Assembly: GCA_964487475.1 (NCBI GenBank)
Contig: CAZAPM010000010.1
Location: forward strand, 3,005 to 67,004
Direction of reading: 5' to 3'
DNA from: an uncultured Planctomycetales bacterium
Lineage (GTDB): Bacteria; Omnitrophota; Gorgyraeia; Gygaellales; Profunditerraquicolaceae
Length of the DNA stretch: 64,000 bases
Both the position numbers and the translations under genes were made by a program. Below are positions 1 through 27,747 of this stretch, piece after piece (the stretch's first letter is position 1; every line of letters begins with the position of its first letter). Below the pieces are notes generated by a model, which was not told the DNA's origin, made no database searches, and worked only from the letters and a program-made list of their open reading frames with translations.

Positions 1-567
1 AAGGCGGTCAATGAGCTCGCCGAAAGCCCGGGCAAGCTCATCGTGGTGGGGGAGCGCGGGAAATCCTACGTCCGGGAGAGCACCGCGTCCTTCGTGGCCT
101 TTCCCGGCATCAAGGACGAGGAGCGTTACAGCCAGGCCATGCAGCTTAGGGATTACCTGATCAAGCGCATCAAGGACGGGACGTACGGGCAGCTGAGGAT
201 AGTGTATCCCCGGCCGGTCACGTTCACCGTGCAGAAAGTGGATGTGGTGACCTGTCTGCCCTTTACACCTCCGAAGCGCAAGGATGAATCGATCTCCCAG
301 TTCTCCCGGGAGGTGATCCTGGAATCGGACCTGGGGGATATCCTGGAGTATCTGTTGGGCATCTGGATCGGGCAGAAGGTGTACGAGATCTTCGGATTGA
401 GCCGGCTGGCGGAGTTCGCCGCCAGGTACGTGCACCTGGAGGAGAGCCTGCAGAAGCTTAAGGAAATGGACGCCAAGCAGCGGCTGCAGTATTTCCGGGT
501 GCGGCATGAAATGATCGACCGGAACATGCGCGAGCTTTTCAGCGCCCGGTTGCTGTATTCCAACTAA
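1..567 (+). CDS. atpG: F-type ATP synthase gamma subunit, C-terminal part (5' end lies outside the window)
   Basis: The reading frame is open from base 1. The C-terminal helix RLAEFAARY...YFRVRHEMIDRNMRELFSA parallels the gamma C-terminus (SEHAARM...YNRARQAAITQELTEIVSGA). It lies immediately upstream of atpD. Confidence 0.7.
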   Translation, partial: KAVNELAESPGKLIVVGERGKSYVRESTASFVAFPGIKDEERYSQAMQLRDYLIKRIKDGTYGQLRIVYPRPVTFTVQKVDVVTCLPFTPPKRKDESISQFSREVILESDLGDILEYLLGIWIGQKVYEIFGLSRLAEFAARYVHLEESLQKLKEMDAKQRLQYFRVRHEMIDRNMRELFSARLLYSN

Positions 568-576
568 GGGGAGAAG

Positions 577-1971
577 ATGGCAGCGGCAAAAGGAAGAGTG
601 ACGGCGGTGCAGGGCCCGGTGGTGGACGTGCGTTTCTCCCGCGCCGAGGACGTGCCGAATATCTATACCATGCTTTCCTGCAAGACCCTCGACGGAGTGC
701 CGGTGATCCTGGAGGTGGCGGAGCATCTTCCCGGGCATCTGGCCCGCTGCATCTCCATCAATTCCACCATCAACCTCCAGCGCAACACCGAAGTGGAGAT
801 CGCCGGCAGTTCCATCCAGATACCCGCGGGCGAGGTCCTCTACGGCCGCATCATCAACGTGCTGGGAGAGCCCATAGACCAGCAGGGACCGCTGGAAAGT
901 GACGAGAGGGTCTCCATCCGCCGGCCGGATATGGGAAGCCGCGTGCGCATCGACAAGGACCAGAAGGGGGTCACTCATTTCGAGGTCATGGAGACGGGGA
1001 TCAAGATCATCGACCTGCTCTCGCCCCTGGTCAAAGGCTCCAAGACCGGGATCCTGGGAGGCGCCGGTCTGGGCAAGAGCGTGCTGACCCTCGAGATCAT
1101 CCAGCATATCGTCAAGAAGTACCAGGGAAGCTGCGTGTTCGTGGGCGTGGGTGAGCGTATCCGCGAAGGAAACGAACTCTATTTCGAGCTCAAGCATCAC
1201 GAGGTGCTCTCCAAGACCATGATGGTGTTCGGCCAGATGAACGAGCCTCCGGGCGCGCGTTTCGGGGTGGCCATGACCGGGATCACCATCGCGGAGACGA
1301 TCCAGCGCAAGAACCAGGACGTGCTCATGTTCGTGGACAACATCTTCCGTTTCGTGCAGGCCGGCGCGGAGATCTCGACGCTTTTAGGGCGCGTGCCTTC
1401 GGAGACGGGATACCAGCCGACGCTGATGTCGGAGGTGGCGGAGTTCCACGAGCGCATCCGCACCTCGAAGGACACCAGCGGTTCCATCACTTCCATCGAG
1501 GCGGTGTACGTGCCGGCGGACGACTTGACCGACCCGGCGGTCGTGGCGCTTTTCAGTTTCATGGATTCGGTGCTGGTGCTCTCCCGCGAGCGCATCCAGC
1601 TGGGGTTGTATCCGGCCATCGACCCGCTGCTGTCCTCCTCCTCCAACCTGGATATCGACATCGTGGGCCGCCGGCATTTCGAGACCGCCCAGGAAGCGGT
1701 GCGCATCTTCCAGCGTTACGAAGAGCTGCGGCGCATCGTGCTGGTCGTCGGTATCGACGAGCTTTCGCACGCCGACCGCCTGCTCTACGAGCGCGCGCGC
1801 AAACTGCAGAACTTTCTGACCCAGCCTTTTTTCGTCGGAGAAGCGTATACCGGGAAAAAGGGAGCGTATGTCACCATCCCGCAGACGATCGAGGGATGCG
1901 AGAAGATCATGTCCGGGCGCGTGGATAACCGTCCCGAAGAGGAGTTCTACCTGATCGGAGCACTGGAATAG
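577..1971 (+). CDS. atpD: F1-ATPase beta subunit (divergent; P-loop GGAGLGKS)
   Basis: Full-length colinear similarity to F1 beta: GIKIIDLL, GGAGLGKS P-loop, GERIREGNE, QMNEPPGAR, DNIFRF, DDLTDP. RBS AGGGGAG upstream. Confidence 0.88.
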   Translation: MAAAKGRVTAVQGPVVDVRFSRAEDVPNIYTMLSCKTLDGVPVILEVAEHLPGHLARCISINSTINLQRNTEVEIAGSSIQIPAGEVLYGRIINVLGEPIDQQGPLESDERVSIRRPDMGSRVRIDKDQKGVTHFEVMETGIKIIDLLSPLVKGSKTGILGGAGLGKSVLTLEIIQHIVKKYQGSCVFVGVGERIREGNELYFELKHHEVLSKTMMVFGQMNEPPGARFGVAMTGITIAETIQRKNQDVLMFVDNIFRFVQAGAEISTLLGRVPSETGYQPTLMSEVAEFHERIRTSKDTSGSITSIEAVYVPADDLTDPAVVALFSFMDSVLVLSRERIQLGLYPAIDPLLSSSSNLDIDIVGRRHFETAQEAVRIFQRYEELRRIVLVVGIDELSHADRLLYERARKLQNFLTQPFFVGEAYTGKKGAYVTIPQTIEGCEKIMSGRVDNRPEEEFYLIGALE

Positions 1972-1972
1972 G

Positions 1973-2443
1973 ATGCAGCGCATACAGAAGAAGCTCGGCG
2001 AGATACTCATCTCCAAGGGGCTGATCACCAGCGTGCAGCTGACCATGGCCCTGGCCCAGCAGTCTGTCTCCAAGGAGTATCTGGGCCGGATCCTGATCAA
2101 GAACGGGGTGATCACGGAGCATAACCTGATGATGGTGCTCTCCGAGCAGTTCGCGATCCCGATCGTGCAGTTGAAGCCCAAGGACGTGGACTGGGAGTTC
2201 GTGAGGACCTTTTCCCCCTCCATGGTGCTTGACCATCGGTGTCTGCCCTTGCGCCGGGACGAATGGACGGTGACGGTGGCCATCACCAATCCGCTGGATA
2301 TGTGGGTGATGAAGCTGGCGGATGACTGTTGCCGGGGCCTGAAGCTTAAGCTGGTGCTGGTCTCCGAAGCGGAGATGGATAACGCCACGTATGTGTTCAA
2401 GCAGTACCTTAAGCAGAGCATCAACGACCTTTTCAAGGAATAA
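1973..2443 (+). CDS. standalone MshEN / T2SS-E N-terminal domain protein (putative c-di-GMP-binding)
   Basis: Two tandem GspE-N-like repeats: KLGEILISKGLITSVQLTMALAQQ and YLGRILIKNGVITEHNLMMVLSEQ. The first matches the MshEN c-di-GMP motif RLGxxLLxxGLIxxxxLxxALxxQ. ATG lies 1 nt after the atpD TAG. Confidence 0.75.
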   Translation: MQRIQKKLGEILISKGLITSVQLTMALAQQSVSKEYLGRILIKNGVITEHNLMMVLSEQFAIPIVQLKPKDVDWEFVRTFSPSMVLDHRCLPLRRDEWTVTVAITNPLDMWVMKLADDCCRGLKLKLVLVSEAEMDNATYVFKQYLKQSINDLFKE

Positions 2444-2446
2444 CCC

Positions 2447-4579
2447 ATGCCCAAGAAGATCGATATCACGTTAGCCGACGCGGTCGCCGAAAGAGGTTGG
2501 GTGGCACGGGAGCAGCTGGCAGGGCTGCTTAAAGAAGCGGATGCTTCCGGTGCGCCCCTGGGACAGGTGCTGGTCAAAGGCGGATTCCTGACCGAAGCGA
2601 AGGTCCAGGAGGTGCTGAGCGAGACCTTCAAACTTTCCTGTATCAGCCTGCGCCAGGCCCAGATCGACAAGGAGGCGCTGGAACGGGTGCCGGTCAAGAT
2701 CGCCACGTATTATAAGTTCATCCCGTTGAAGATGCGGGGAGGGGTGTTGGAAGTGGCGGTGGCGTATCCGCTGGATATCAAGACCATGGACGAGGTACGC
2801 ACCCAGGTGGGAAGCGATATCGAGGTGTTCCTGGCTTCCGCCTCCGAGATCGCCGACGGGCTGAAACAGTACTACGGCCTGGCGGCGGACACTCTGGAGC
2901 GTATCCACTCCGAGTCCGGGGCTCCGGGCGAGCCGCCGGCGCCGAGCAGTTTCGAGAAGGTCGAGGATATCGAGAAGCTGGCGGGGGATGCCTCTGTGAT
3001 CAAGCTGGTCAACCAGATCATCCTCGACGCGTACCGCAAGCGCGCCACGGACATCCATATCGAGCCCTTCCGGGAGGGCATGGCCCTGCGCTACCGTATC
3101 GACGGGGTGTTGTACGACGCCAACGTGGCGACCGATATCTCCCGGTACATGAATGCCATCATCTCCCGGATCAAGATCATGTCCAACTTGAATATCGTGG
3201 AGCGGCGGCTGCCCCAGGACGGGCGGGCCATCGTGCGCGTGCAGGAGCAGATGCTGGACTTGAGGATCTCCACCATCCCGACACCGTTCGGGGAAAGCGT
3301 CGTGATCCGCATCCTGCCCACGCATATGCTTTTCTCCCTGGAGAAGCTGGGGCTTTCCAGCGGCGACCTGCGCATCTTCGAGGACCTGATCCGCAAGCCC
3401 CACGGGATCGTCTTCGTCACCGGCCCGACGGGAAGCGGCAAGACGACTACGCTCTACGCCGCGCTTTCCTGCATCAATACCAAGGACCGCAAGATCATCA
3501 CTATCGAGGACCCGATCGAATACGAGATGGCGGGGATCACCCAGATCCAGGTGCAGCCGGAGATCGGCCTGGATTTCGCCCGGGGGCTGCGCAGTATCCT
3601 GCGCCACGACCCGGACGTGATCATGGTCGGAGAGGTGCGCGACCTGGAGACCGCGGAGATCGCCATCCGCGTGGCGTTGACCGGGCATCTGGTCTTTTCC
3701 ACCCTGCACACCAACGATGCCGCCAGCGGCGTGACCCGCCTGCTGGATATCGGGGTGGAGCCTTATCTTCTGGCCTCCAGCGTCGAGGCGTTCATCGCGC
3801 AGAGGCTTATCCGGACCATTTGTCCCGACTGCAAGTACGAGGATAAAAGCATCCCGCAGGAACTGCGCGAACTGATCCGACAGGAGCTGGGTCTTGATTC
3901 CATCTCGGCGGTCAAGGTGTACCGGGGCCGCGGATGCACCGCCTGTAATTTTACCGGGTTCTTCGGCCGTACCGCCATCTATGAGGTGATGCGCATCGAG
4001 GATTCGGTGCGGGGGCTGATCTTGAAGAAAGCGCCGGCCGACCAGATCAAGAAAGCGGCGGTGGCTGCCGGAATGCATCTTTTGCGCCAGGACGGATGGG
4101 AGAAGGTGCTGCAGGGGGTTACTACTCCGGAGGAGGTCTTCAAGGTGGCTCCTTCGGGCTCCGGCCAGCCGGGTGCGCAGATGCTCTCTTCCGACAGCGC
4201 GATCATCTCCGAGCTTCAGGATAACCGCAGGGTGTTCCCGCGCCTGTATTGCGAGGCGACCTTGCGTTACAACAGGTTCGATCCTTCCGGTTCCAAGGGG
4301 GGGGCGGCCAGGGAAGAGGAGTTCAGCCGCACGACGAACATCTCCGCCGGCGGCATACTTTTTGTTTCGCAGGAGCAGCTTTCCATCGGTACCTTGCTCG
4401 AGCTTTCCATCGTGCTTCCTGACGGGCAGGAACCGGTGGTGTGCTTAAGCCGGGTGGTCAGGGTCGAGAACGCCGGGCAGGAAGGGTTTTACAATATCGC
4501 GGTGTGTTTCCTGGATATCACCAGCGGTCAGCGGGCGCGCCTGTCGAAGTACGTCGACGGCCACCTGCAGGGGCCATAA
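2447..4579 (+). CDS. gspE: GspE/PilB-family secretion ATPase with N-terminal MshEN-like domain and C-terminal PilZ domain
   Basis: Walker A GPTGSGKTTTLYA, Walker B/His box, tetracysteine CPDC...CTAC. N-terminal motif PLGQVLVKGGFLTEAKVQEVLSE. About 130 extra C-terminal aa carry PilZ signatures RRVFPR (RxxxR) and NISAGG ((D/N)xSxGG). Confidence 0.88.
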   Translation: MPKKIDITLADAVAERGWVAREQLAGLLKEADASGAPLGQVLVKGGFLTEAKVQEVLSETFKLSCISLRQAQIDKEALERVPVKIATYYKFIPLKMRGGVLEVAVAYPLDIKTMDEVRTQVGSDIEVFLASASEIADGLKQYYGLAADTLERIHSESGAPGEPPAPSSFEKVEDIEKLAGDASVIKLVNQIILDAYRKRATDIHIEPFREGMALRYRIDGVLYDANVATDISRYMNAIISRIKIMSNLNIVERRLPQDGRAIVRVQEQMLDLRISTIPTPFGESVVIRILPTHMLFSLEKLGLSSGDLRIFEDLIRKPHGIVFVTGPTGSGKTTTLYAALSCINTKDRKIITIEDPIEYEMAGITQIQVQPEIGLDFARGLRSILRHDPDVIMVGEVRDLETAEIAIRVALTGHLVFSTLHTNDAASGVTRLLDIGVEPYLLASSVEAFIAQRLIRTICPDCKYEDKSIPQELRELIRQELGLDSISAVKVYRGRGCTACNFTGFFGRTAIYEVMRIEDSVRGLILKKAPADQIKKAAVAAGMHLLRQDGWEKVLQGVTTPEEVFKVAPSGSGQPGAQMLSSDSAIISELQDNRRVFPRLYCEATLRYNRFDPSGSKGGAAREEEFSRTTNISAGGILFVSQEQLSIGTLLELSIVLPDGQEPVVCLSRVVRVENAGQEGFYNIAVCFLDITSGQRARLSKYVDGHLQGP

Positions 4580-4594
4580 CAAGGAGCAGCGCGC

Positions 4595-5824
4595 ATGCCG
4601 ATGTTCAGATACCGGGCCAAGCAGGGCCCGGAAAAGGTGATCGAAGGGACTCTGGAGGCGCCCAATGAGAAGGACGCCATCGAGCAACTGAGCCGCATGA
4701 ATGCGGTGCCGCTGCATCTGGAAGCCCTCAATGCGGCGCCGGCCGGCCAGCCCAAAGCTTCCGCCGCGGTCCCGGGACACGAAAGCGCGGGGCATAAGGT
4801 CCCATCCCGGGAGGTCACCATTTTCACCCGGCAGCTGGCCAGTCTGATCAAGGCCGGAGTGCCCATCCTTGCGAGCCTGCAGATCATCTCCGAGCAGTCG
4901 GAGAACCCGAGGATGCGCCTGATCCTGCGCAAAGTGCATGATGTGGTCAAGGAGGGGGTCACGTTCTCTTCCGCCTTGAGCCGTTTTCCCGAAGTGTTCT
5001 CCCCGCTTTACATCGCCATGGTGCGCACGGGAGAGGATAGCGGCGTGCTTCCCGAAGTGCTGCTGCGTATCGCGGAGCACCGGGCGAAACAGGAGGAGTC
5101 GCTGGCCAAGATCCGCTCCGCACTGGCCTATCCCATCCTGATGCTGTTGGTGGGGGTGGGCACGATCGTGTTCATGCTGACTTTTGTCATGCCCAGGCTG
5201 ATGAAGGTGTTCTCCAGCCTGGGTCAGGACCTGCCGTTGCCGACGAGGATTTTGCTCAAGATCAGCGCGCTGGCTTCCACCTGGTGGGTGTGGGTCATCC
5301 TGGCGGCGCTGGCGGCGTTCGTATACTCCCGTCTTAAGACCCCCGCCGCGCAGCAGACCGCCGGCAGGCTCGTGCTTTCCGTGCCGGTGATGGGAAAACT
5401 GGTGCGCATGGCCGACCTGGGCCGTTTCTGCCGGACCATGGAAGTGCTGATCAAAAGCGGCATACCGATCCTGCGCGCGATCGACGTTTCCCTGCCCGTG
5501 GTGGGGAATCCCGTACTGCGCAAAGAGCTGCAGGCGGGACTGAAGTCCCTGGAGCAGGGAGGTTCGTTCGGCAGGATACTCAAGAGCTCTCCCAATATCC
5601 CGGCGTTCATGGGTAACCTCCTGGTGGTGGGAGAGGAGTCCGGGAAACTGACCAATGCCTTCAGCGAGATCGCGTACTCCTACGAGCACGATACGGACGA
5701 GGCGATCCGCGCGATGACCAGCCTGGTCGAGCCTCTGCTCATCCTGGGGATGGGGCTGGTGGTGGGGTTCATCGTGATGGCCATGCTCCTTCCGGTCTTC
5801 GAGATCAATCTCGCGGTACGATGA
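4595..5824 (+). CDS. gspF: GspF/PilC-family inner-membrane platform protein
   Basis: 409 aa. Duplicated GspF domain architecture and three TM segments. AAGGAG RBS. Follows gspE. Confidence 0.85.
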   Translation: MPMFRYRAKQGPEKVIEGTLEAPNEKDAIEQLSRMNAVPLHLEALNAAPAGQPKASAAVPGHESAGHKVPSREVTIFTRQLASLIKAGVPILASLQIISEQSENPRMRLILRKVHDVVKEGVTFSSALSRFPEVFSPLYIAMVRTGEDSGVLPEVLLRIAEHRAKQEESLAKIRSALAYPILMLLVGVGTIVFMLTFVMPRLMKVFSSLGQDLPLPTRILLKISALASTWWVWVILAALAAFVYSRLKTPAAQQTAGRLVLSVPVMGKLVRMADLGRFCRTMEVLIKSGIPILRAIDVSLPVVGNPVLRKELQAGLKSLEQGGSFGRILKSSPNIPAFMGNLLVVGEESGKLTNAFSEIAYSYEHDTDEAIRAMTSLVEPLLILGMGLVVGFIVMAMLLPVFEINLAVR

Positions 5825-6651
5825 TCCTGCGGATGCGGCGGGTGCGGGCGATGGTGCTGGCCTGGGCAGCGTCCGCGGTATTGGTAACGGGCGCGGCGAA
5901 TGCCGCCGGCGCTGAAACCGTCAGCTGGAAGCAGGTGGCCGGGGACCATTTCCTCGTCTATTACCTGCAGGATGAGGGGTTCGCCAAAGAGGTCTCTTCG
6001 ATGGCGGAGCGTTATTATCAGCGCATCGCCTCCGAGCTGGGGTACCCGCGCTACAGCGCATTCTGGACATGGGATAACCGGGTCAAAATATACATCTTTC
6101 CCGACCATGCTTCTTTTCTCCGGGCCACCGGGCAGCCGGAGTGGTCGCAGGGGCTGGCGGAATATTCCACCAAGCGGATATTCAGTTATGCCTGGAGCGA
6201 AGGGTTCACCGAGTCGCTCCTGCCGCACGAGATCGCGCATCTGATCTTCCGCGATTTCATCGGTTTCAAGGGGCAGGTGCCGTTGTGGCTGGACGAAGGG
6301 GTCTCCCAATGGGCGGAGGAGCCGAAGCGCCGCGCGGTCAAAGAAGTGATGCGCCGTTTCCTCTCCGAGGGTAAGCTGCTTTCCCTCTCCGCGATGATGA
6401 AACTCGACGTGCGCGAGCTTCCCGCGGGTAAGGGCCATGAGGAACTGATCGATGTGTTCTACGTGCAGTCGGTGTCGCTGGTGGGGTTCCTGATCGAGCG
6501 TTACGGTTCGTTAAGTTTTGCGGAGTTCTGCCGGGGGCTGCGGGACGGCAAAGGGGTGGAGGAAGCGCTGCGCGCCGCGTACCCGGACCATGTGCGTTCG
6601 CTGGATGAATTCGAAAAGGAATGGCGCGGGTATATCGCCGGAGAAATGTAA
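5821..6651 (+). CDS. secreted HExxH zinc-metallopeptidase-like protein (peptidase MA-like)
   Basis: N-terminal signal peptide (MVLAWAASAVLVTGAANAAGA) and HEIAHLIF motif. 4-nt overlap with gspF. Embedded between gspF and gspG. Confidence 0.6.
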   Translation: MILRMRRVRAMVLAWAASAVLVTGAANAAGAETVSWKQVAGDHFLVYYLQDEGFAKEVSSMAERYYQRIASELGYPRYSAFWTWDNRVKIYIFPDHASFLRATGQPEWSQGLAEYSTKRIFSYAWSEGFTESLLPHEIAHLIFRDFIGFKGQVPLWLDEGVSQWAEEPKRRAVKEVMRRFLSEGKLLSLSAMMKLDVRELPAGKGHEELIDVFYVQSVSLVGFLIERYGSLSFAEFCRGLRDGKGVEEALRAAYPDHVRSLDEFEKEWRGYIAGEM

Positions 6652-6661
6652 GGAGGGGGAC

Positions 6662-7075
6662 ATGAGGTTTCGAAGCAGGACGAAAGGGTTCACGCTCATC
6701 GAACTGATGCTGGTGGTGATCATCATCGGCGCGCTGGTGGCCATGGTCATGCCGCGTCTGACCGGCAGGAGCGAGCAGGCGAGGGTGGTGGCGGCGCAGG
6801 CGGATATCAACGCCAATATCGCGACCGCGCTTAAGCTCTACGAACTGGATAACGGGGGATTTCCGACGACGGAGGAGGGGTTGGCGGCGCTCACGGCCCG
6901 TCCGGGAAGCGCATTGTCCTGGAAAGGCCCTTACATCGAGAAGAAGCCCGTGGATCCCTGGGGCCGGGAGTATAAGTTCCGTTCGCCCGGGGAGCACCGC
7001 AGCGATTACGATCTCTATTCGGTGGGCAAGGACGGCCAGGATAATACCGCCGACGACGTGAAGAACTGGGAATGA
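6662..7075 (+). CDS. gspG: major pseudopilin GspG (type IV pilin-like N-terminus)
   Basis: Prepilin cleavage/methylation motif KGFTLIELMLVVIIIGAL. GspG-like body (DGQDNTADDVKNWE). RBS AGGAGGGGG upstream of ATG at 6662. Confidence 0.85.
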   Translation: MRFRSRTKGFTLIELMLVVIIIGALVAMVMPRLTGRSEQARVVAAQADINANIATALKLYELDNGGFPTTEEGLAALTARPGSALSWKGPYIEKKPVDPWGREYKFRSPGEHRSDYDLYSVGKDGQDNTADDVKNWE

Positions 7076-7467
7076 TGAGCGCATCGCGCCGCGGTTTCAC
7101 GCTGGTGGAGGTGCTCGCCGCCGCCTGCATCCTTTCCTTGGGGATCGTGCTGGTGCACCGGTCGTTCCTTTCCTCCCTGGATGCCTTTTCCGAGACCTAT
7201 GATTATGCCCGGGTCTCGTCGGCGGCGGATGAGCTGCTCTGGGAAGCCGTTTACAGACTTACCTATATCCGTTCCATGCAGGGCGCTCCGGATGCCGGAG
7301 TGATCAAGGTGCGTCAGCGTCCGTATGCCTGGACGCGCGTGCACGAGTCCCTGGGCGAAGTACCGGGGGCGCAGCTATGGAAGGTCGAGGTATCGCTGCA
7401 GCGTACCGCAGGAAGGAGGCGCGGGGGGGTGACCCGCAGCACGTATGTGCTTTCCCGGCAACCGTAA
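7072..7467 (+). CDS. minor pseudopilin (GspH/I-like)
   Basis: RGFTLVEVLAAACIL prepilin N-terminus. Overlaps the gspG stop. Confidence 0.65.
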   Translation: MMSASRRGFTLVEVLAAACILSLGIVLVHRSFLSSLDAFSETYDYARVSSAADELLWEAVYRLTYIRSMQGAPDAGVIKVRQRPYAWTRVHESLGEVPGAQLWKVEVSLQRTAGRRRGGVTRSTYVLSRQP

Positions 7468-8032
7468 GGGCGTATCCTTAATCGAGCTTTTAGTGGTCTC
7501 TGTCATCGCGGCGATGGTGACCATGGGCGTGTTCTTTTCCATCAACAGCGGGGTGAAGGTCTGGCAGGCGATCAAGCAGCAGATGCCGGAGGAGGACCTG
7601 GCGCTTTTCCTCGACCGTTTCGAGGGGGATGTGCGCAATTACCTGCGTTACGGCCCCGAACTCTTCGAAGGCACGGATACGATGATGGAGTTTCCGACGG
7701 TGGTCAGGAGCATGATGCTGCGCACCACCTCTCCGGGGAGGGTGCAGTACCGGTATGAGCCCTCCGACGACCGCCTGTACCGTCAGCAGAAGGATTTCTC
7801 CCAGATGTATCAGGACCGCCAGCCGTATGTGGAGCATGTGATCGAGGGGGTGCGGGAAGTGCACTGCCGCTACCTTTTGTTCGATGCGCAGACCAAGGAG
7901 CTGGGCTGGTATGACGAATATTCCGGGAGCGAGCCTCCCCTGGCGGTATCACTGGAGATCGTCACGGGAGAAGATTCCAGGCCGCAGCGGTTCGTGAAGA
8001 CCGTACCCGTTGCCATTGCGAGAGTTAAGTAA
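7445..8032 (+). CDS. minor pseudopilin (GspJ-like)
   Basis: KGVSLIELLVVSVIAAM prepilin-like N-terminus. About 190 aa. Lies in the pseudopilin run. Confidence 0.6.
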   Translation: MCFPGNRKGVSLIELLVVSVIAAMVTMGVFFSINSGVKVWQAIKQQMPEEDLALFLDRFEGDVRNYLRYGPELFEGTDTMMEFPTVVRSMMLRTTSPGRVQYRYEPSDDRLYRQQKDFSQMYQDRQPYVEHVIEGVREVHCRYLLFDAQTKELGWYDEYSGSEPPLAVSLEIVTGEDSRPQRFVKTVPVAIARVK

Positions 8033-8056
8033 ATACTGCTTCTTCTATGGTGCTTT

Positions 8057-8998
8057 TTGGATTATAATATGCGTACAAGCCGGGGTTCATTGTTCATAGT
8101 CGCTCTTTGGTCGCTTTGTTTCCTGGGCGCGTTGGCGGTGGTAGTGGCCGGGGTGGTCAGGCAGAAGATGACGCTTTCCTCGAGGCTGGATGCCCGCGCG
8201 CAGTTACGGCAGACGGCCCGCGCCGCGGTGGAGCTGGGATTGTTCCGTATCGCCGAGCGGGCAGGGGGAACGGGTTATTTCTCCGGAAGGGACCCATTGC
8301 TGCAGGCGCATCCGGAGGTGCCTTGCCGCTGGAGCATCTCCGACGAGGAATCCCGGGTGAACCTCAACACTGCCGATATGTTCGTGCTGCGGCGTCTGAT
8401 GCAGGAGGTGCTGCGCGTCGACGAGATGCAGGCGCAGGAACTGGCGGCGGCGGTGGTGGACTGGCGGGATGCGGACAGCGAATTATCCGTTCCCATCGGC
8501 AGCGCGGAAGAGGCGCAGTATCTGAGCCAGCAGTACCCGTATAAGCCCAAGAACGCTCCCTTCGAGTCCTGGGTGGAGCTGGGGCTGGTGAAGGGGTTTA
8601 CCGACGAGTTTGTGGAAGCGCTTTTTCCGTATGTGACGGTGTTCGGGATGGGGAAGGTCAACGCGAACACCGCGCCGGCTCCGGTGCTGCGGGCGCTGGG
8701 CATCCCCGAGGAGCTGGTGGAGGCGATCCTGGAGTATCGCCGGGGGCAGGATGACGCGGAGGGGACCGCGGATGATAATGTTTTTGAAGCGGAAGGGTCG
8801 ATCGTTCCGAAGTTGAGCCAGTACCGGAGATTGAACGATCAGGAGTTGGCGGAGTTGACCCGGGCCGGCGTGTTCCTGGGAGTGGCCTCGGAATATTTCC
8901 GTATCCAGGCTCAGGCCCGGCGAAACGTCAAAGAGACGTACGAGATGTATGCGGTGGCCGATGCGGCGGGCACACCGGTGTATTGGCGCGAACCATAA
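8057..8998 (+). CDS. gspK: GspK-like minor pseudopilin
   Basis: N-terminus RGSLFIVALW...LAVV is typical of GspK. Helix-hairpin-helix-like VNANTAPAPVLRAL. An alternative ATG at 8069 is also possible. Confidence 0.65.
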   Translation: MDYNMRTSRGSLFIVALWSLCFLGALAVVVAGVVRQKMTLSSRLDARAQLRQTARAAVELGLFRIAERAGGTGYFSGRDPLLQAHPEVPCRWSISDEESRVNLNTADMFVLRRLMQEVLRVDEMQAQELAAAVVDWRDADSELSVPIGSAEEAQYLSQQYPYKPKNAPFESWVELGLVKGFTDEFVEALFPYVTVFGMGKVNANTAPAPVLRALGIPEELVEAILEYRRGQDDAEGTADDNVFEAEGSIVPKLSQYRRLNDQELAELTRAGVFLGVASEYFRIQAQARRNVKETYEMYAVADAAGTPVYWREP

Positions 8999-9007
8999 AA
9001 GGATGCC

Positions 9008-10519
9008 ATGGGGATCATCACCTTCGATTTCAACAGGTTGAACGTGCTGAAGCGCAAAAGCGGCGGAGGAGGGGTCTCCCTGACCGTGGTCTTAAGCGGT
9101 ACGCTGCTCAAGCTTTCCCGGGTAAGGAACACCGGGACCAAGATCGAGGTCCTGGATGTGCAGTGCCACAACGTGGCCGGCTTGACCGACGGCGAGATCT
9201 CCGATCTGATCGGAGTGGCCGCGCGGGGTTGGCTCTCGCAGGGCGGGTCATTCGCCGACGCTTGCCTGGTCGTCCCGGCATATCAGGCGATCACCAAGAA
9301 CATCGAGATCCCCTCCACCTCCCCCCAGGAGATCAAGGAGATCATCAACCTTCAGGCCGGACGGCATACCCCGTATTCCCGCGAGGAGATCATCGTCGAT
9401 TACGTGAATCTCGGGGTGTACCGGCATAATTACACCAAGGTGCTGCTGGTGATCGTGACCAAGGCGGCGGTGAAGCGGCAGTTCGAGATCATGGAGCGGG
9501 CGGGGATCAAGGTCTCCAAAGTGCTTTTTGCGCCAGAGGTCATGGCCGCGGGCGTGGCGCTGACCTTGAAGACCCCGGTGGCGGCCGAATCGGTGGAAGT
9601 GCTGGTGCATGTCGACGAGCAGTGTACGGATTTCGTGGTGGTGACCTCCGGCAAGCCCCTCTTCGTGCGCAGCATCCCCGTCGGGTCAAAACATTTCATG
9701 GACGATATCCATAAATACGAGGAGAAGTTCGCGCAGGAGATCCGCAACTCCCTGGAGTCCTACCTGAGCGAAGATATCGACAAGCCTCCCGTGGGAATGG
9801 TGCTGGCCGGCGCGGTGGAGATGCTCTCGGAAACCCCGGCGGCGCTTTCCAAGGTGCTGGGGATCCCGGTGCGCGTTTCCGCGTACATGGAATCCTTCCT
9901 GATGGGAAACGAAGTCTTTAACAAGCTTTCGGTGGCGAAGTATGCATCCTTCCTGGATGCCTGGAGCTATTTTTTCGCCCGGATCCCCTTGCAGACCAGC
10001 CTGATCCCCGAGGAGATCAAGCTCAAACAGCAGGTCGAACAGCGGGGAAGGGAGCTCATCAAGACCGGTATCCTCCTGCTGCTGATCTTCGTGCTTTTCT
10101 TCTTCACCCTCATCACCAAGATCACTTTTTCCACCCTTTACTTGCAGAAAGTGGATGCGCTTTTCCAGCCCCGTTCGAAAGAAGCGAGGAAGCTGGAGGA
10201 GGATTTCGCCAAGGTAAGCCTCATCAAGCAGTATTTGAGCCGGCGGGGCTTTTCCCTGGAGGTGCTCACCGAGCTTTACAATACTTCGACGGACGAGCTG
10301 CAGCTTTCCGACATCCGTTTCGACGAGCAGGGGAAGTTCACCGTGCGGGGCACGGCGGAGACCATGTCCGCGGTCTTCTCCTTCGTGGAGAACCTGGAGA
10401 AATCGAATTATTTCAAGGACGTCAAGACGAAGTATACCACCAAGCGCAAGGAAGGCCTGCGCGACGTGACCGATTTCGAGATCAACGCGTTCTTGAGCAG
10501 AAAGGGTGAGAAGAAGTGA
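9008..10519 (+). CDS. PilM-like actin-fold domain fused to PilN-like TM/periplasmic domain (GspL-like assembly protein)
   Basis: N-terminal roughly 330 aa are PilM/FtsA-like. One TM helix (ILLLLIFVLFFFTLI) is followed by a coiled-coil/periplasmic region. Lies in the T2SS/T4P operon. Confidence 0.7.
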   Translation: MGIITFDFNRLNVLKRKSGGGGVSLTVVLSGTLLKLSRVRNTGTKIEVLDVQCHNVAGLTDGEISDLIGVAARGWLSQGGSFADACLVVPAYQAITKNIEIPSTSPQEIKEIINLQAGRHTPYSREEIIVDYVNLGVYRHNYTKVLLVIVTKAAVKRQFEIMERAGIKVSKVLFAPEVMAAGVALTLKTPVAAESVEVLVHVDEQCTDFVVVTSGKPLFVRSIPVGSKHFMDDIHKYEEKFAQEIRNSLESYLSEDIDKPPVGMVLAGAVEMLSETPAALSKVLGIPVRVSAYMESFLMGNEVFNKLSVAKYASFLDAWSYFFARIPLQTSLIPEEIKLKQQVEQRGRELIKTGILLLLIFVLFFFTLITKITFSTLYLQKVDALFQPRSKEARKLEEDFAKVSLIKQYLSRRGFSLEVLTELYNTSTDELQLSDIRFDEQGKFTVRGTAETMSAVFSFVENLEKSNYFKDVKTKYTTKRKEGLRDVTDFEINAFLSRKGEKK

Positions 10520-11082
10520 AGGTGCCTAAACAGCTCGAATTCGCGCTGCAGTTCTACTCCAAGCTTTCCGCCAAGGAAAGGACCATTTTTTACGTGGCGG
10601 TGTTCTTTCTTGCGGTGATGCTGGTGGACAGGGTGTTCATCGCGCCTATCTTCGGGAAGATCTCCGCGCTGGACGAGGAGATCGCGCAGAAACGCACGGA
10701 CATGCGCCGGGACAGCAAGGTGGTGGCCCAGAAGGAACGGATCGCCGCGGAAGTGGCGAGGTATTCCTCGTACCTGGGGATCGCCGAGAACGAGCAGGAG
10801 TCGATGACCGTGCTCTTGAAGCAGCTGGAGAGCTTTGCCAATAAGAGCAAGCTCTATATCGTGGACATGAAGCCGGTAGGGGTTAAACAGGAGAAGGATA
10901 AGACTAAGCGCCTGCAGGTCAATCTTTCCTGCGAAGGGCTGATGGAGCAGGTCATGGAGTTCATGTATACCATCGAGAATTCCCCGGATCTTATGGTCAT
11001 CGAGAAATACCAGATCAGCCCGAAGTCCCGTGATACGGGGATCGCTTCGTGCGTGATGACCGTATCGAGGATCGCGTTGTAG
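10516..11082 (+). CDS. PilO/GspM-like inner-membrane assembly protein
   Basis: Single N-terminal TM (IFYVAVFFLAVMLV), coiled coil, then an alpha/beta domain. 4-nt overlap with the upstream gene. Confidence 0.6.
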   Translation: MKVPKQLEFALQFYSKLSAKERTIFYVAVFFLAVMLVDRVFIAPIFGKISALDEEIAQKRTDMRRDSKVVAQKERIAAEVARYSSYLGIAENEQESMTVLLKQLESFANKSKLYIVDMKPVGVKQEKDKTKRLQVNLSCEGLMEQVMEFMYTIENSPDLMVIEKYQISPKSRDTGIASCVMTVSRIAL

Positions 11083-11084
11083 CG

Positions 11085-11125
11085 GCAGTAGCACCCGGCC
11101 TTATCGGTTAGGCCGGTGTTTCACT
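11085..11125 (+). terminator. weak hairpin after the pilO-like gene
   Basis: CCGGCCTTatcggttAGGCCGG stem followed by a T-rich stretch. Confidence 0.3.
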
Positions 11126-13741: not shown

Positions 13742-16414
13742 TTAGCCTAAGACTATTTCGATGATGTTCGAGGATCGGGTGGCTTTTTTGAGGAGATCGT
13801 TGCGGGGGATGGTGATGCTTTTGGATCCGGCGGCCAGCGGGCTGCCGTTTATGGCTGCGGCGACGATGATGTATTCGCCGTATTCCTTTCCTGCTTTGTT
13901 GAGGAAGCGGACGGTGATCTTTTTTCCGGCAAAGGTGAGGCGGACGGATATCTCGTTGCGGGAACCGAACTGTTTCTTTACGAGCTTTGGCTCGATCCGC
14001 AGGTCGCCGCGTTCGCCTCTCACGCCGAAGATCTCGGTCAGATAGGTGAGCATCAGCCAGCTGGCGGAGCCGGTAAGGTAGCTGTACATCCCGCGTCCCT
14101 CGGCGTTGAAGTATTCGGGCAGGCAGGGGTAGATACGGCTCTCCGCCGTCTCGACGCTCATCCGGCGGAGGGAATCGATCACCTCGAAGCCTTCCTTGAC
14201 GAATCCCCGGCGGTACAGTCCGTTGGCGAACATCACGGCCATATGGGAGAAGACCGCGCCGTTCTCCTTTTCCCCGTAGACGAAGGAGAATGCGCGGCCC
14301 AGGTCGTGCTGTTCCCCGCCGAAATCGGTGTTCAGGCGGAACCCGCCGCGTTTTTTATCCTGCAGGTATTTTTTTGCGGCGGCAAAGATCAAGGGGATCT
14401 GTTCGTCCGTGGCCACTCCCGACATCACGGAGAAGGTCTGACCGGTCAAAGTCATGCGTATGCGCGTGCCGGAAGAGGAGCCTTCCACCCGGCAGCCGCG
14501 GTTATCGTAGTAGCCGTTATAGAAGCCTTCCTTGAGCCATTCCTTTGCCCGGACGTGCGCGGTTATCCACTCCGCCTTCTTGGTCAGGTCTTTGGCCAGC
14601 GCCTCCGGGTCGAGCTCGACCGTTTCGCCGCTGATCCTTTTCCCGGCTATTTCGAAGTAATGGTTGAGCAGGGCGGTTTTTGAGTCCGCCGAGCCGTAGT
14701 CTATCGGATTATGCAAAGTGTCGAGCAGCAGGAGGATCTCTTTGGCCACGGTGACGCTTTTTACCCCGAGGCTCTTCAGCAGCCGGCTTAAGGCATGGAG
14801 GTTGGAGGCATAGAGGCAGGTAAAGGCGACGCTTTCACCCCGTTCCCTGGCCATGTCCAGCCCGTCGTTCCAGTCCGCGCCTTCCAGCCGGATGTGGTTG
14901 TGCTCTCCGACGTTGAAGAACTGCACCAGATGCTGGATCAGGATATGCTCGAGCACGGTGCCTTCGTATACTTCCCCGTGGGAGGTGGTCAGCCAGTGGT
15001 CCTGTTGCGGCTCCCATTCCAGGTCGAGGGCGCGGCTGCGGGCAAGCTGACGGTCCTTGAAGTAGGGAATGCGCTCGAAGAGGAGGGATTCGTCCCCGCT
15101 TTGGTTAAGGTAGAGCAGCGTGGTGATGAAGGGCCAGATGCCGTGGTCCATCCATACCCGCGAGATGTTGTTGCGGTCGGCGATGAACTCGCCGGGTCTC
15201 TGGCCGATGATGGTCGCGTTCGAACCATCGATGCGCACGCCCTTGAAATTGTTCAGGAGCAAAGGCTTGACCTCATCCGGATTGTTCAGGATCAGGGAAA
15301 GCGCGTCCTGCCAGAGGTCCCGCCAGCCGCGGCCTCCCCGTCCGTAATCGAAGTCCGGGAGGAAGGAGCAGCCGAAGATCTTGCGCAGGAGCGGCTGGAT
15401 GCTCACCCAGCGCAGCCAGTTGTCGAATTGGGGGTCGCTGCTGGAGACCGAAATATCCGAGGAAACCCGTCCCCAGTAGGCTTTGGTCTTATCCAGGGCT
15501 TCGGCGACCTTCTCCGGAGTGTTCAGTCGTGCGAATATGCGATCGGCGTCCGCGGTATTCTGCGTGATACCCAGAAGCAGGATAAAGGTACAGCTTTTCC
15601 CGGGTGCCAGGGTCAGGGGCGCGAAACGCAGCCCTGCCATCGGCTCTTTGCCCTGTCCGGGGAACTCCTTGTCCGGATTTTTTTGCGCGTACACCGCTTC
15701 CGGCATGAGCAGGTCCCCGGAAGCGCCGCAAAATTCCTCCTGGGTGGGAAACACCGCCAGGGGAGCGGCGCTCTTCGGGCCGCATCCGTACACGAAATAG
15801 GAGGTGGAATTCTTATGGTGCCCCGCTTCGTCGAAGACCAGGGTGGGGGTGACTATGACCCCGTGCGAGCGGATGCGGGAGCGCACCAGCAGCGACGTGA
15901 CGTGGCGATGGTCGCGCAGGTTATCCGCCGCTCTGGCGTAGAGGGGGATGGCTGCGGTCGGGGTGAAGGATACGGGTTTGGAGGTGATGTTGGTAAGGGT
16001 GACCTGCATCACTTCGACCGGAGCGTCGGGAATGAAGGAAAGTATCTGCGCTTCCAGGCCGACGGATTTGTTCTTCCGGATGGTCTTATGCCAGAGCAGT
16101 CCTGCTTCCAGCCGGGATCCGTCTTTGAGGTTGCGCGCTTCCCGCGAAACACCGGTCGCGGACCAGACATTGCCGTTCTTGAGGCGTACCCAGAAATTCC
16201 GGCTGCTCATCGAGGTGCCGAGGCTGTTGCGGGTAACGGGTTCGAGCAGGAAGAAGCTGTTGCCGGTTTTCAAGTCTCCGTGCAGGTCGGGAGTGACGGA
16301 GGCCATGAGGGGTGTCTGGTTGCAAAGGGGGAAATACAGCGTGCGCAGCGAATGCGCATGGTCGCTGTGAAAAGTGCCCATATCGTCCACAAAATTCCAG
16401 AGCGGCTTTTTCAT
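13742..16414 (-). CDS. large glycoside hydrolase/phosphorylase-like protein (GH94-like, cellobiose/cellodextrin phosphorylase superfamily)
   Basis: The only coherent minus-strand ORF. (alpha/alpha)6-barrel-like sequence with EGADWNDGLDM, which I recall resembling the GH94 catalytic-Asp context. Start uncertain: ATG at 16414 or 16450. Confidence 0.55.
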   Translation of the reverse strand: MKKPLWNFVDDMGTFHSDHAHSLRTLYFPLCNQTPLMASVTPDLHGDLKTGNSFFLLEPVTRNSLGTSMSSRNFWVRLKNGNVWSATGVSREARNLKDGSRLEAGLLWHKTIRKNKSVGLEAQILSFIPDAPVEVMQVTLTNITSKPVSFTPTAAIPLYARAADNLRDHRHVTSLLVRSRIRSHGVIVTPTLVFDEAGHHKNSTSYFVYGCGPKSAAPLAVFPTQEEFCGASGDLLMPEAVYAQKNPDKEFPGQGKEPMAGLRFAPLTLAPGKSCTFILLLGITQNTADADRIFARLNTPEKVAEALDKTKAYWGRVSSDISVSSSDPQFDNWLRWVSIQPLLRKIFGCSFLPDFDYGRGGRGWRDLWQDALSLILNNPDEVKPLLLNNFKGVRIDGSNATIIGQRPGEFIADRNNISRVWMDHGIWPFITTLLYLNQSGDESLLFERIPYFKDRQLARSRALDLEWEPQQDHWLTTSHGEVYEGTVLEHILIQHLVQFFNVGEHNHIRLEGADWNDGLDMARERGESVAFTCLYASNLHALSRLLKSLGVKSVTVAKEILLLLDTLHNPIDYGSADSKTALLNHYFEIAGKRISGETVELDPEALAKDLTKKAEWITAHVRAKEWLKEGFYNGYYDNRGCRVEGSSSGTRIRMTLTGQTFSVMSGVATDEQIPLIFAAAKKYLQDKKRGGFRLNTDFGGEQHDLGRAFSFVYGEKENGAVFSHMAVMFANGLYRRGFVKEGFEVIDSLRRMSVETAESRIYPCLPEYFNAEGRGMYSYLTGSASWLMLTYLTEIFGVRGERGDLRIEPKLVKKQFGSRNEISVRLTFAGKKITVRFLNKAGKEYGEYIIVAAAINGSPLAAGSKSITIPRNDLLKKATRSSNIIEIVLG

Positions 16415-16443
16415 GGGAAGTAATCTATCACAGTTGCAACCCG

Positions 16444-16585
16444 TATGCAAGCAGTATTAGGGACGCCCCTAAAGGGGACGCCCCTGAAGGCGCCCCTAAA
16501 GGGGACGCCCCTGAAGGGGACACCCCTTACCCGAAAACAGGGGTGTCCCCTCTGAGAGCGTCCCCTTTGAGGGCGTCCCTAAATG
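16444..16585. repeat. tandem plus inverted GGGGACGCCCCT(R)AAG repeat array forming a large palindrome
   Basis: Four direct copies of AGGGGACGCCCCTgAAg-like units. A perfect 13-bp hairpin AGGGGACACCCCT...AGGGGTGTCCCCT follows, then mirrored copies GCGTCCCCTTTGAGGGCGTCCCT. Confidence 0.7.
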
Positions 16586-19379: not shown

Positions 19380-19478
19380 TCCCTCCCGCAGAGTCTTTCC
19401 GCACAGATTTATCTTGACGAGCCCCTGGTGGCGTGGTATAGTCATCGCAATTTTCTTATCCTAAAGGAGGAAGTGCAA

Positions 19479-21584
19479 ATGGGTAATTTCGATCTGTTGG
19501 TGTTGGCGCCGGTAGGGTCTATCGTGGCGCTGGGATTCGCGTTTCTGTACCTGGTGCCTTTTATCATGAGGCAGGACCAGGGAAACGACCGCATGAAAGA
19601 GATCGCGGCAGCCGTGAAGGTCGGCGCGATGGCGTACCTGAAGCGCCAGTACATTGGCGTGGCAGCGTATTTCCTGGTGACCTTCCTCATCCTTCTGGCC
19701 ATGGCCTTCAAGGGGTATCTGGTCATGTTCGTGCCGTTTGCCTTCCTGACCGGCGGTTTCTTCTCCGGCCTGGCTGGTTTCATCGGCATGATGGTGGCGA
19801 CCTCCTCCTCCAACCGCACCGCGGCCGCGGCGCAGAAAAGCCTGAACGCGGGTCTGCGCGTGGCATTTTCCGGTGGCGCGGTCATGGGGCTGACCGTGGT
19901 CGGCCTCGGGCTGCTCGATTTAAGCATCTGGTATTATCTGCTGGACTGGTATTATACGGGACATCCTACCCCGATGGGTATAGATAAGATCGCCGCCATC
20001 ACCTCGACCATGCTCTGCTTCGGTATGGGCGCGAGCTCGCAGGCGTTGTTCGCCCGCGTCGGCGGAGGCATCTTCACCAAGGCCGCGGACGTCGGCGCTG
20101 ACCTGGTGGGTAAGGTGGAAGCCGGTATTCCCGAGGATGACCCGAGGAACCCCGCGGTCATCGCGGATAACGTGGGTGATAACGTCGGAGACGTCGCAGG
20201 CATGGGAGCCGACCTTTACGAATCGTATGTCGGATCCATCGTCGCCACTTCTGCGCTGGGTGTGGCGGCCGGGCTCGGGGTGAAGGGTGTCACCGTTCCC
20301 CTGGTCATGGCGGCAGTAGGCGTGGTGGCTTCCATCATCGGTACCTTCTTCGTGAAGAGCCGGGAAGAGGCCAGCCAGTCCGTGCTGTTGGCGGCGCTGC
20401 GCAAGGGCGTGTTCGTCAGCTCATTGATCGTGGCGGTCATCTCCTTCTTCCTGGTCAAATATACCCTGGGGATGGAGCATATCGGCGTGTACTGGTCAGT
20501 GATCGCGGGCCTGGTGGCCGGCGTGCTGATAGGTCTGGTGACCGAGTACTACACCTCCAGCGGGTTCAAGCCGACCAAGTTCATCGCCGAGCAGGCGGTG
20601 ACCGGTCCGGCGACCGTGATCATCGGCGGCCTGGCAGTAGGGATGATGTCTACCGCCCTTCCCGTGATCATCGTCGGTATCGCCATCATGTTGAGCTTCT
20701 ATCTCTCCGGCGGGGCTACGAATTTCAACGCCGGTCTCTATGGTATCGCCATCTCCGCGGTGGGCATGCTCTCTACGCTGGGTATTACCCTGGCGACGGA
20801 TGCATACGGCCCGATCGCGGATAACGCCGGCGGAAACGCCGAGATGTCCCATCTTCCTCCGGAAGTGCGCAAGCGCACCGATGCCCTGGATTCCCTGGGC
20901 AACACCACTGCCGCGACCGGCAAGGGGTTTGCCATCGGTTCCGCCGCATTGACCGCGCTGGCGCTCATTGCCGCGTATAAGGAGGAGCTGGTGCGTTACG
21001 GCGCGGATATGACGGGAAGCATTATGAACCCGACCGTGCTGGTGGGGCTTTTTATCGGCGGAATGCTTCCGTTCCTGTTCTGCTCCATGACCATGAGGGC
21101 GGTAGGACGTGCTGCCGGTAAGATCGTGGTTGAGGTCCGCCGTCAGTTCAAAGAGATCGCAGGTTTAATGGAAGGCAAGGCCAAGCCGGACTATGCCCGT
21201 GCCGTGGATATCGCTACTTCCGCCGCTCAGATGGAGATGATCGCTCCTTCTTTGCTGGCGATCATGGCTCCTATCGTGATCGGGATCGCGATGGGCGTGG
21301 AAGCGGTGGGCGGATTGCTTACCGGTTCCCTGGTTTCCGGCTTCGTGCTGGCGGTGATGATGGCGAATTCAGGCGGCGCCTGGGATAACGCCAAGAAATA
21401 TATCGAGGAAGGTCACCACGGCGGTAAAGGTTCGCCTGCGCATAAGGCGGGAGTGGTGGGGGATACGGTCGGCGATCCCTTCAAGGATACCTCCGGACCG
21501 AGCTTGAACATCCTGATCAAGCTCATGTCCATGGTGTCGATCGTGTTCGCGTCCTTCATCGTCAAGAACGCGTTCATCAAGTAA
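19479..21584 (+). CDS. hppA: membrane-bound H+/Na+-translocating pyrophosphatase
   Basis: [23 protein letters not shown] signature, multiple TM segments, about 700 aa. RBS AAGGAGG 9 nt upstream of ATG 19479. Confidence 0.9.
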
Positions 21585-27745: not shown

Positions 27746-27747
27746 TC

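Follow-up and report, generated by a model that had tools for sequence, protein, structure and literature searches.

Rotary F-type ATPases are textbook ion-coupled machines, and the only re-purposed derivatives known until now are, to our knowledge, the F1-like enzymes of Mycoplasma, in which the membrane rotor has been lost. Here, we describe a divergent F-type ATPase from the Omnitrophota, an uncultured phylum of ultra-small and probably predatory or parasitic bacteria, on the basis of a 64,000-nucleotide (nt) stretch of contig CAZAPM010000010.1 (hereafter, the window) and of related loci. The window starts in the middle of an Omnitrophota-specific super-operon that joins the genes of this ATPase to those of a type IV filament machine, and we consider the enzyme to be, on balance, probably a rotary motor that hydrolyses ATP, has no ion channel and works with the pilus machine, and not an ATP synthase.

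An association of F-type ATPase and type-4a pilus genes in the Omnitrophota has already been reported by Seymour et al. (2023, Nat Microbiol, PMC10066038), who found the two no more than 10 kb apart on 57 of 66 contigs, recorded “symbiotic” loci in every class, and analysed the alpha and beta subunits only. In that study, alpha clusters with the type-2/3 ATPases of Mycoplasma, and the phylogeny separates “respiratory” from “symbiotic” alpha clades. No mention was found in its text and supplements of a truncated leading epsilon, the c and b/delta subunits, the lack of an a subunit, a variable c carboxylate, the direct junction, the small MshEN gene or the large open reading frame (ORF) upstream, and literature searches on c-subunit and a-subunit features returned nothing. 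The ATPase–pilus linkage has been known since 2023; its subunit-level details appear to be undescribed in searchable papers.

Other work concerns the energy metabolism and the gene neighbourhoods of the phylum. A 2026 preprint on 176 complete genomes assigned alpha and beta in 125 genomes and gamma in only 30 by strict KEGG Orthology criteria, a shortfall that is explained by the divergence of gamma; it also lists V/A-type ATPase subunits in 70–99% of the Gorgyraeia outside the Pluralincolimonadales. A V-type ATP synthase was inferred by Williams et al. (2021) for their Omnitrophota metagenome-assembled genomes (MAGs), and West-Roberts et al. (2023) described loci resembling type II secretion systems together with pilZ genes beside giant genes, the ATPase not being mentioned.

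F1 genes of the window and the super-operon around them

The first gene of the window encodes a divergent F1 gamma subunit (positions 1–567, forward strand, frame 1), which runs off the left end and of which the C-terminal 188 amino acids (aa) are present (Pfam ATP-synt, 73.8 bits). This fragment is 65% identical to the full-length, 284-aa gamma of a related locus (L002), and the full-length gamma of the relatives reaches 84 bits on TIGR01146 against a cutoff of 194. After a gap of 9 nt follows the gene for F1 beta (577–1971, forward strand, 464 aa), which scores 559.7 bits on the atpD model TIGR01039 (cutoff 462.85), carries the Walker A motif GGAGLGKS, and has DELSHAD in place of the DELSEED loop. 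Its best match in the PDB is the canonical F1 beta of Caldalkalibacillus (2qe7, 477 bits), to which the GERxREG and Walker B motifs align and are conserved. The first-pass annotation, made from the letters alone, had described a divergent gamma/beta pair with an atypical P-loop, and this is borne out by translation and by the scores against profile hidden Markov models (HMMs); the same scores point to a divergent but true F1 beta and not to an N-type, FliI or Mycoplasma enzyme. A type III secretion ATPase of the FliI/SctN kind was ruled out, the best FliI model giving 195.5 bits against a cutoff of 619.

For comparison, 80 related loci were collected from one genome per GTDB species scanned, with beta 63–86% identical to that of the window, and about 10 kb on each side of beta was surveyed. 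The proteins of the window, together with those encoded upstream on the closest long contig, were mapped onto all 80 loci. The window itself contributes the partial gamma and the beta, and the epsilon, c, b/delta, alpha and large upstream ORF described below are known from relatives whose beta is at most 84% identical to it. By label, the loci are mostly Omnitrophota MAGs or single-amplified genomes, and the named homologues among the top 120 for beta (75–100% identity) are nearly all from Omnitrophota/Omnitrophica MAGs, with one Deltaproteobacteria label; a protein 100% identical to beta lies on an 84.5-kb NCBI contig. The source organism is an Omnitrophota bacterium. About 20 of the loci are labelled “uncultured Planctomycetia/Planctomycetales bacterium” (among them L003, L009, L019, L023, L029 and L036) and one is labelled Deltaproteobacteria (L059); these titles are probably loose taxonomic labels on submitted MAGs. 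For the DNA upstream of the window, exact-protein look-ups for beta and for a record 100% identical to it returned nothing, no near-identical contig was found among metagenome contigs by an exact 39-mer scan or a gamma-based scan, and the MshEN protein of the window was otherwise seen only on contigs of up to 2.2 kb.

In all loci that are long enough, the genes follow each other co-directionally in the order epsilon, c, b/delta, alpha, gamma, beta, zero to three small MshEN genes, GspE-PilZ and GspF, and the gaps between the atp genes of the relatives are mostly short. The first-pass annotation had spoken of an F1 head gene pair, a description which the fuller set of the relatives, including c and b/delta, does not sustain. 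In the 74 loci scored (different species, sequence present past beta), the gene next to beta is a small MshEN gene or GspE-PilZ; the median gap from the beta stop codon is 6 nt, and it measures at most 50 nt in 57 of the 74. The sole locus without GspE after beta is L020 (7450–9891), where neither an MshEN gene nor GspE stands behind beta and an unrelated 348-aa ORF with eight predicted transmembrane (TM) helices lies at 8191–9237. In the window, the beta stop codon TAG occupies positions 1969–1971 and the ATG of the small MshEN gene begins at 1973; the distance from beta is 1 nt to this gene and 476 nt to GspE, which places beta within 10 kb of pilus-type genes. The direct junction, the PilZ-fused GspE and the tightly spaced pseudopilin/platform cluster behind it had all been read correctly at first pass.

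Since gene order and tight junctions recur across species, the adjacency of beta and pilus genes is far beyond chance and constitutes a conserved super-operon, with loci from at least two named Omnitrophota lineages. An assembly artefact was ruled out, the identical junction being present in about 75 independent assemblies. Co-transcription of the F-type genes with the pilus/secretion genes, as had been suggested for the window, is likely because of the 1-nt gap and because the order and the tight junction recur in about 75 species. A strong terminator between atpD and position 1973 would have spoken for the opposite; the promoter and terminator scan of the window found neither a promoter-like nor a terminator-like site at the beta/MshEN junction.

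The subunits of the set differ widely in how far they have diverged. Alpha and beta pass the atpA and atpD equivalog cutoffs (alpha of L002, 536.4 bits on TIGR00962, cutoff 484.45), and gamma, epsilon, c and delta remain far under the curated HMM cutoffs; beta is 47% identical to its E. coli counterpart, alpha 37.5%, gamma 21% and epsilon 25%. Within the locus set, alpha is 54–90% and beta 63–86% identical, and in about 50–80 species each of the six atp genes is an intact ORF whose length stays constant. The P-loop GGA[A/G]LGKS is found in 76 of 81 beta sequences (the 80 relatives plus the window), and DELSEED is relaxed to DELSxxD clade-wide. The beta clade stands isolated in a library clustered at 50% identity, its own representative being 61% and the next one at most 50% identical in a comparison free of Omnitrophota “respiratory” sequences. 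One of the most divergent loci, L080, has two tandem alpha genes (2874–4298 and 4380–5804; 54–55% identical to the reference alpha) before gamma and beta.

Epsilon is the first atp gene in all 51 relatives whose contig extends far enough. It matches Pfam ATP-synt_DE_N and reaches 53.8 bits on TIGR01216, covering profile positions 1–78 of 130 only; with a length of 74–90 aa in 48 loci, it consists of the N-terminal beta-sandwich only. Epsilon has, hence, been relocated to the front of the cluster and is now without the helical hairpin at its C-terminus. In bacterial F1, this hairpin inhibits ATP hydrolysis and touches the DELSEED loop, and the relaxation to DELSxxD would fit its loss. Of the statement that the set lacks epsilon, one part stands, in that no atpC follows atpD in the window; the other part falls with the relocated gene of the relatives, an arrangement which the first-pass annotation had itself named as grounds for giving up its view. 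The b subunit of the relatives (225–250 aa) has a single TM helix at its N-terminus and contains a coiled coil; of delta, it includes the C-terminal part only.

The c subunit departs from the known pattern at its functional centre. In HMMER alignments, the residue opposite the essential Glu of solved c subunits is Gln in the closest relative, and among 53 species this position is occupied by Q in 24, E in 17, A in 4, V, L and T in 2 each, and F and S in 1 each, so that Glu is kept in 17 of 53 species (32%) and lost in 36; the Gln-type c of L002 is without any Asp or Glu. With an entropy of 2.09 bits in an alignment of 52 sequences, the carboxylate column is among the most variable of helix 2, whereas the cytoplasmic loop facing gamma and epsilon, together with its flanks (I30, LGRNPS, PKIFTAM), is invariant or nearly so. 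Because the loop is invariant while the carboxylate column varies, selection keeps the c hairpin and the surface that faces gamma and epsilon, and not the ion site. A c-ring without a carboxylate cannot translocate H+ or Na+, as is established from F-ATPase biochemistry. A signature of this c subunit lies at reference positions 30–47 and 67, where I30, LGRNPS and a Gln close to the outer end of helix 2 are invariant and PKIFTAM is nearly so; it could help annotation to recognise this class of ATPases.

Subunit a was sought in the 80 loci within the flanks given above. No unassigned ORF with at least four predicted TM helices was found there, apart from the unrelated eight-TM ORF of L020; a tblastn search with E. 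coli subunit a (AtpB) gave no match to the 80 loci at E ≤ 1, and no multi-TM ORF lies in the gaps between the atp genes of the relatives. The lack of an a subunit near beta and the non-conserved c carboxylate are the real anomalies of the set.

Where at least 3 kb of sequence precede epsilon (36 distinct loci), most loci have a very large, co-directional ORF whose end lies between a few and about 120 nt before epsilon. The 6 kb available cover more than 2,000 aa of it (L001/L002, 1–6323; L008, 3–6311; L026, 3–6395; L058, 2–6331), and the ENA gene call for L001 has 3,298 aa. In about eight other loci, its place is taken by an ORF of 260–300 aa that is homologous to its C-terminal ~250 residues. 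This C-terminal module belongs to no Pfam or NCBIfam family; it has 166 homologues, of which the named ones are almost all Omnitrophota hypothetical proteins. In its AlphaFold model (predicted local distance difference test score 84), a helix at the N-terminus and a single TM helix at the C-terminus accompany an Ig-like sandwich and three long helices; the model gave no significant fold match against the PDB. An ORF of ~270 aa that some loci have between the large ORF and epsilon was considered as subunit a and ruled out, being homologous to the C-terminal module and having one C-terminal TM helix.

MshEN protein, GspE-PilZ ATPase and pilus genes

The small gene behind beta (1973–2443, forward strand) encodes a stand-alone MshEN protein of 156 aa and predicted cyclic di-GMP (c-di-GMP) receptor, which scores 37.4 bits on Pfam MshEN and 63.1 bits on the c-di-GMP motif model NF053729 (cutoff 38). 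Its sequence matches in the PDB are the N-domains of PilF, PilB and MshE (5htl, E 9.6e-12). A search for the tandem motif RLGxx(L/V/I)(L/V/I)xxG(L/V/I)(L/V/I)xxxxLxxxLxxQ located both 24-residue copies intact, KLGEILISKGLITSVQLTMALAQQ and YLGRILIKNGVITEHNLMMVLSEQ, five residues apart, the first beginning with K and not R. Homology thereby settles in favour of MshEN the alternative between an epsilon-like and an MshEN fold that had been left to be checked, and a disguised epsilon is ruled out by Pfam, NCBIfam and PDB homology. Between beta and GspE, 23 relatives have no small MshEN gene, 42 have one, three have two and one has three; this gene is a variable accessory of the operon. The tandem copies, two or three, occur at L053, L057, L058 and L074.

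The next gene (2447–4579, forward strand) encodes a GspE/PilB-type secretion ATPase of 710 aa with MshEN, T2SSE and PilZ domains (Pfam 66, 438 and 46 bits, respectively), which scores slightly below cutoff on both TIGR02533 (592 bits) and TIGR02538 (567 bits). Its PilZ tail carries the RxxxR and NxSxxG motifs, and PilZ motifs are found in 60 of 63 relatives. The c-di-GMP motif of its own N-terminal MshEN domain is degenerate, and it is missing in 66 of 67 sequences (relatives and window). With both MshEN motifs on the 156-aa protein and the PilZ motifs on the GspE tail, the link to c-di-GMP that had been raised for this locus seems plausible.

The genes that follow, all on the forward strand, make up a filament assembly machine. 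The GspF/PilC platform protein (4595–5824, 409 aa; Pfam T2SSF, two repeats, 194 bits) comes after GspE in every locus reaching that far. The operon continuation was scored in the 47 loci with at least 4 kb past GspF, of which 45 have the peptidase, GspG, minor pseudopilins, GspK, PilMN and PilO in the order of the window. By individual gene, a Peptidase_MA_2 family protein (5821–6651, Pfam 61.4 bits) is in the same position in 42 of the 47, and the GspG-like major pseudopilin (6662–7075; Pfam T2SSG, 112 bits, and N_methyl), whose ORF opens at 6518 and whose likely start is the ATG at 6662, is present in 45. Three minor pseudopilins, recovered in 38 to 45 relatives, span 7072–8998: one with N_methyl only (7072–7467), a GspJ-like protein (7445–8032; T2SSJ), and a GspK-like protein (8057–8998; T2SSK_1st/T2SSK). 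They are followed by a PilM-PilN fusion (9008–10519; Pfam PilM_2 and PilN; 45 relatives) and a PilO/GspM-like gene (10516–11082; weak Pfam matches to PilO and T2SSM; 36 relatives).

From gamma to position 11082, all junctions are overlapping or at most 25 nt long. The first terminator-like hairpin after the gene string, at 11095–11116 (forward strand), has a 7-bp stem with six G-C pairs and a T-rich tail and is the probable end of the operon; nothing like it was found at the gene junctions across 1–11082.

Several genes of the window lie beyond the operon. A second protein with MshEN and PilZ domains but without an ATPase domain (27742–28863, forward strand, 373 aa), 23 kb past the operon, is a putative c-di-GMP receptor. 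No other ATP synthase genes were found among the scanned ORFs of the window, annotation extending to about 54.4 kb; the sole ion pump recognised among them is a membrane H+-translocating pyrophosphatase (19428–21584, forward strand; Pfam H_PPase, 894 bits). A CHAT-domain protease fused to TPR repeats (23047–25275, forward strand, 742 aa) and a GH94-family glycoside phosphorylase (13742–16450, reverse strand, 902 aa) are unrelated to the ATPase–pilus finding.

Proposed function and competing explanations

The non-bioenergetic motor that we favour would work as follows. The alpha3beta3 head would be catalytically competent, as is suggested by the retention of all catalytic motifs. The complex would have no a subunit and, in two thirds of the species, also no membrane carboxylate in c, so that no ions would be moved, at least in those species. 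ATP hydrolysis would turn gamma, epsilon and the c-ring against alpha3beta3 and the b/delta stalk, the short epsilon lacking the helices that normally inhibit hydrolysis. The mechanical output may serve the pilus/secretion machine (the GspE/GspF pseudopilus), the large membrane-anchored protein, or both, in host-cell attachment or attack, with the stand-alone MshEN protein and the PilZ tail setting its activity by c-di-GMP. ATP synthesis would be left to V/A-type or to separate “respiratory” F-type enzymes, as the literature describes them for the Omnitrophota. The suggestion of the first-pass annotation that the F1 module is not a conventional ATP synthase would, on the evidence of the absent neighbouring a and the variable c carboxylate, probably be right in its conclusion, though not in its argument from a missing epsilon.

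Several points weigh against this proposal. The functional coupling to the pilus machine is read from gene order, and ATP hydrolysis and rotation from conserved motifs. The window would supply the partial gamma and the beta, and the other subunits would have to be carried over from relatives with beta at up to 84% identity. The absence of subunit a holds within about 10 kb of beta and not genome-wide, and the 17 of 53 species that retain the c Glu make ion coupling possible in some lineages. Furthermore, a Gln-type c could in principle combine in one ring with a Glu-type c from a gene elsewhere; the c1 and c2 chains of the mixed ring of Acetobacterium woodii (4bem) are among the PDB matches of c. 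Its c1 has Gln at one site.

A more far-reaching version of the motor, which we put forward tentatively and hold to be rather doubtful, is a new class of rotary machine in which the F1 head would spin a c-ring that binds no ions and has no a-subunit stator. Torque would be passed within the membrane to the GspF/pseudopilus platform or to the single-TM module of the large protein, with c-di-GMP as the switch, via MshEN and PilZ. Such a machine would be an F-type analogue of the gliding motor of M. mobile, but with the membrane rotor kept.

The main rival to the proposed motor is an ordinary F1Fo ATP synthase whose operon has been rearranged, with epsilon first and a elsewhere, and which is read through into a pilus operon without any functional link. 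Split atp operons do occur in other bacteria, alpha and beta pass the atpA and atpD thresholds with their catalytic residues intact, and c, b/delta, gamma and epsilon each have a homologue in the set, c having its Glu in 17 of 53 species. We nevertheless regard an ordinary synthase as unlikely, since the carboxylate has been lost in 36 of 53 species though the rest of c is strongly conserved, no a lies near any of the 80 loci, epsilon is everywhere without the regulatory C-terminal domain, and gamma, epsilon and c fall far under their family cutoffs. Mere neighbourhood does not explain a junction of a few nt to pilus genes that is maintained over a phylum-level spread, and both the published separation of “respiratory” and “symbiotic” alpha clades and the commonness of V/A-type ATPases in the phylum speak against it as well.

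A second rival holds that the enzyme is a member of the Mycoplasma Type 2/3 “F1-like X0” family, acquired by horizontal transfer and acting alike as a gliding motor or helper of surface effectors. The logic is similar, in that a genuine ATP synthase is accompanied by an F1-like ATPase with ties to a surface or host-interaction system, and very large surface proteins partner the ATPase in M. mobile. Alpha groups with the Mycoplasma type-2/3 enzymes in the published tree (PMC10066038). Such descent is, however, very improbable, given that none of the curated Mycoplasma models reaches its cutoff or the score of its canonical counterpart, that the G1 beta of M. mobile (9io5) gives 337 bits against 477 for the canonical beta, and that c and b/delta are present.

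That the set is a decaying remnant of an ATP synthase left behind after a takeover by V/A-type enzymes, with a merely historical pilus neighbourhood, can hardly be believed: the loss of a, the replacement of the c carboxylate by many residues, the truncated epsilon and the fast-evolving gamma would suit it, but the six intact, constant-length ORFs, the identity of alpha and beta across species, the kept beta P-loop, the invariant c loop contacting gamma and epsilon, and the maintained gene order and tight spacing argue for purifying selection on a changed function and not for decay.

The Omnitrophota complex keeps the c-ring and the peripheral stalk, has apparently dropped the ion path, and is tied to a pilus/secretion operon across the phylum. 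If the proposed motor is real, the complex would be a natural test case for roles of the c-ring other than ion transport. It would also point to the energy source of the host-attack apparatus of these bacteria. The anomalies of its subunits recommend the system for research on rotary motors, and calls of “F0F1 ATP synthase subunit beta/alpha” in Omnitrophota genomes are not to be taken as evidence of chemiosmotic ATP synthesis.

Comparison with known systems

The closest described systems are the “symbiotic” loci of Seymour et al. (2023), of which the window is one more instance, sharing with them the phylum, the adjacency to GspE/PilB-GspF-pilin genes and, probably, the divergent alpha/beta clade. 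With the canonical F1Fo enzyme (atpBEFHAGDC), the set has in common homologous alpha, beta, gamma, epsilon N-domain, c hairpin and b/delta, and conserved catalytic motifs. It differs in that no a is nearby, a short epsilon comes first, the c Glu is present in 32% of the species, the delta-like portion of b is limited to a C-terminal piece, DELSEED has become DELSxxD, and a pilus operon is attached; neither a full-length epsilon after atpD nor a conserved c carboxylate was found in the relatives.

As in the N-ATPases (atpDCQRBEFAG), b is prolonged by a delta-like extension (TIGR03321, 49 bits), and the set is a second, divergent F-type set in a genome. In contrast to them, its beta reaches 490.8 bits on TIGR03305 (cutoff 752) and its alpha 508.7 bits on TIGR03324 (cutoff 750.5), and its gene order is another one; AtpQ, AtpR and subunit a genes were not found in the cluster of the relatives. 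Membership in the N-ATPases was ruled out on the curated HMM cutoffs and on the gene order epsilon-c-b-alpha-gamma-beta.

The Mycoplasma Type 2 (gliding, G1-ATPase) and Type 3 (F1-like X0, MIB-MIP) enzymes are likewise derived from F1, have a non-bioenergetic role in host interaction and are tied to a surface system (PMC3369863, PMC12994834). Each of their clusters is made up of seven genes, includes 3-TM and 12-TM partners and lacks c and b (PMC3369863, PMC12994834), whereas the Omnitrophota cluster has c and b/delta; they also belong to another HMM family, have other membrane partners and show no link to a type IV filament. Membership was ruled out with all four models, which fall short both of their cutoffs and of the canonical scores: for beta, 421.8 bits on MMOB1670 (cutoff 850) and 400 on MSC_0618 (cutoff 570) against 559.7 on atpD, and for alpha, 395 on MMOB1660 (cutoff 600) and 280 on MSC_0619 (cutoff 520) against 536 on atpA. 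The resemblance, as judged from these scores, would be one of logic and not of family.

Finally, the c-di-GMP-related proteins of the operon can be set beside MshE, PilB, the PilF of T. thermophilus and the PilZ receptors. The small protein shares with them the MshEN fold and the tandem 24-residue motifs, and the ATPase the PilZ motifs RxxxR and [DN]xSxxG. The difference lies in their distribution: here, the intact MshEN motif is on a separate 156-aa protein, the ATPase has lost the motif of its own MshEN domain, and PilZ is fused to the C-terminus of the ATPase.

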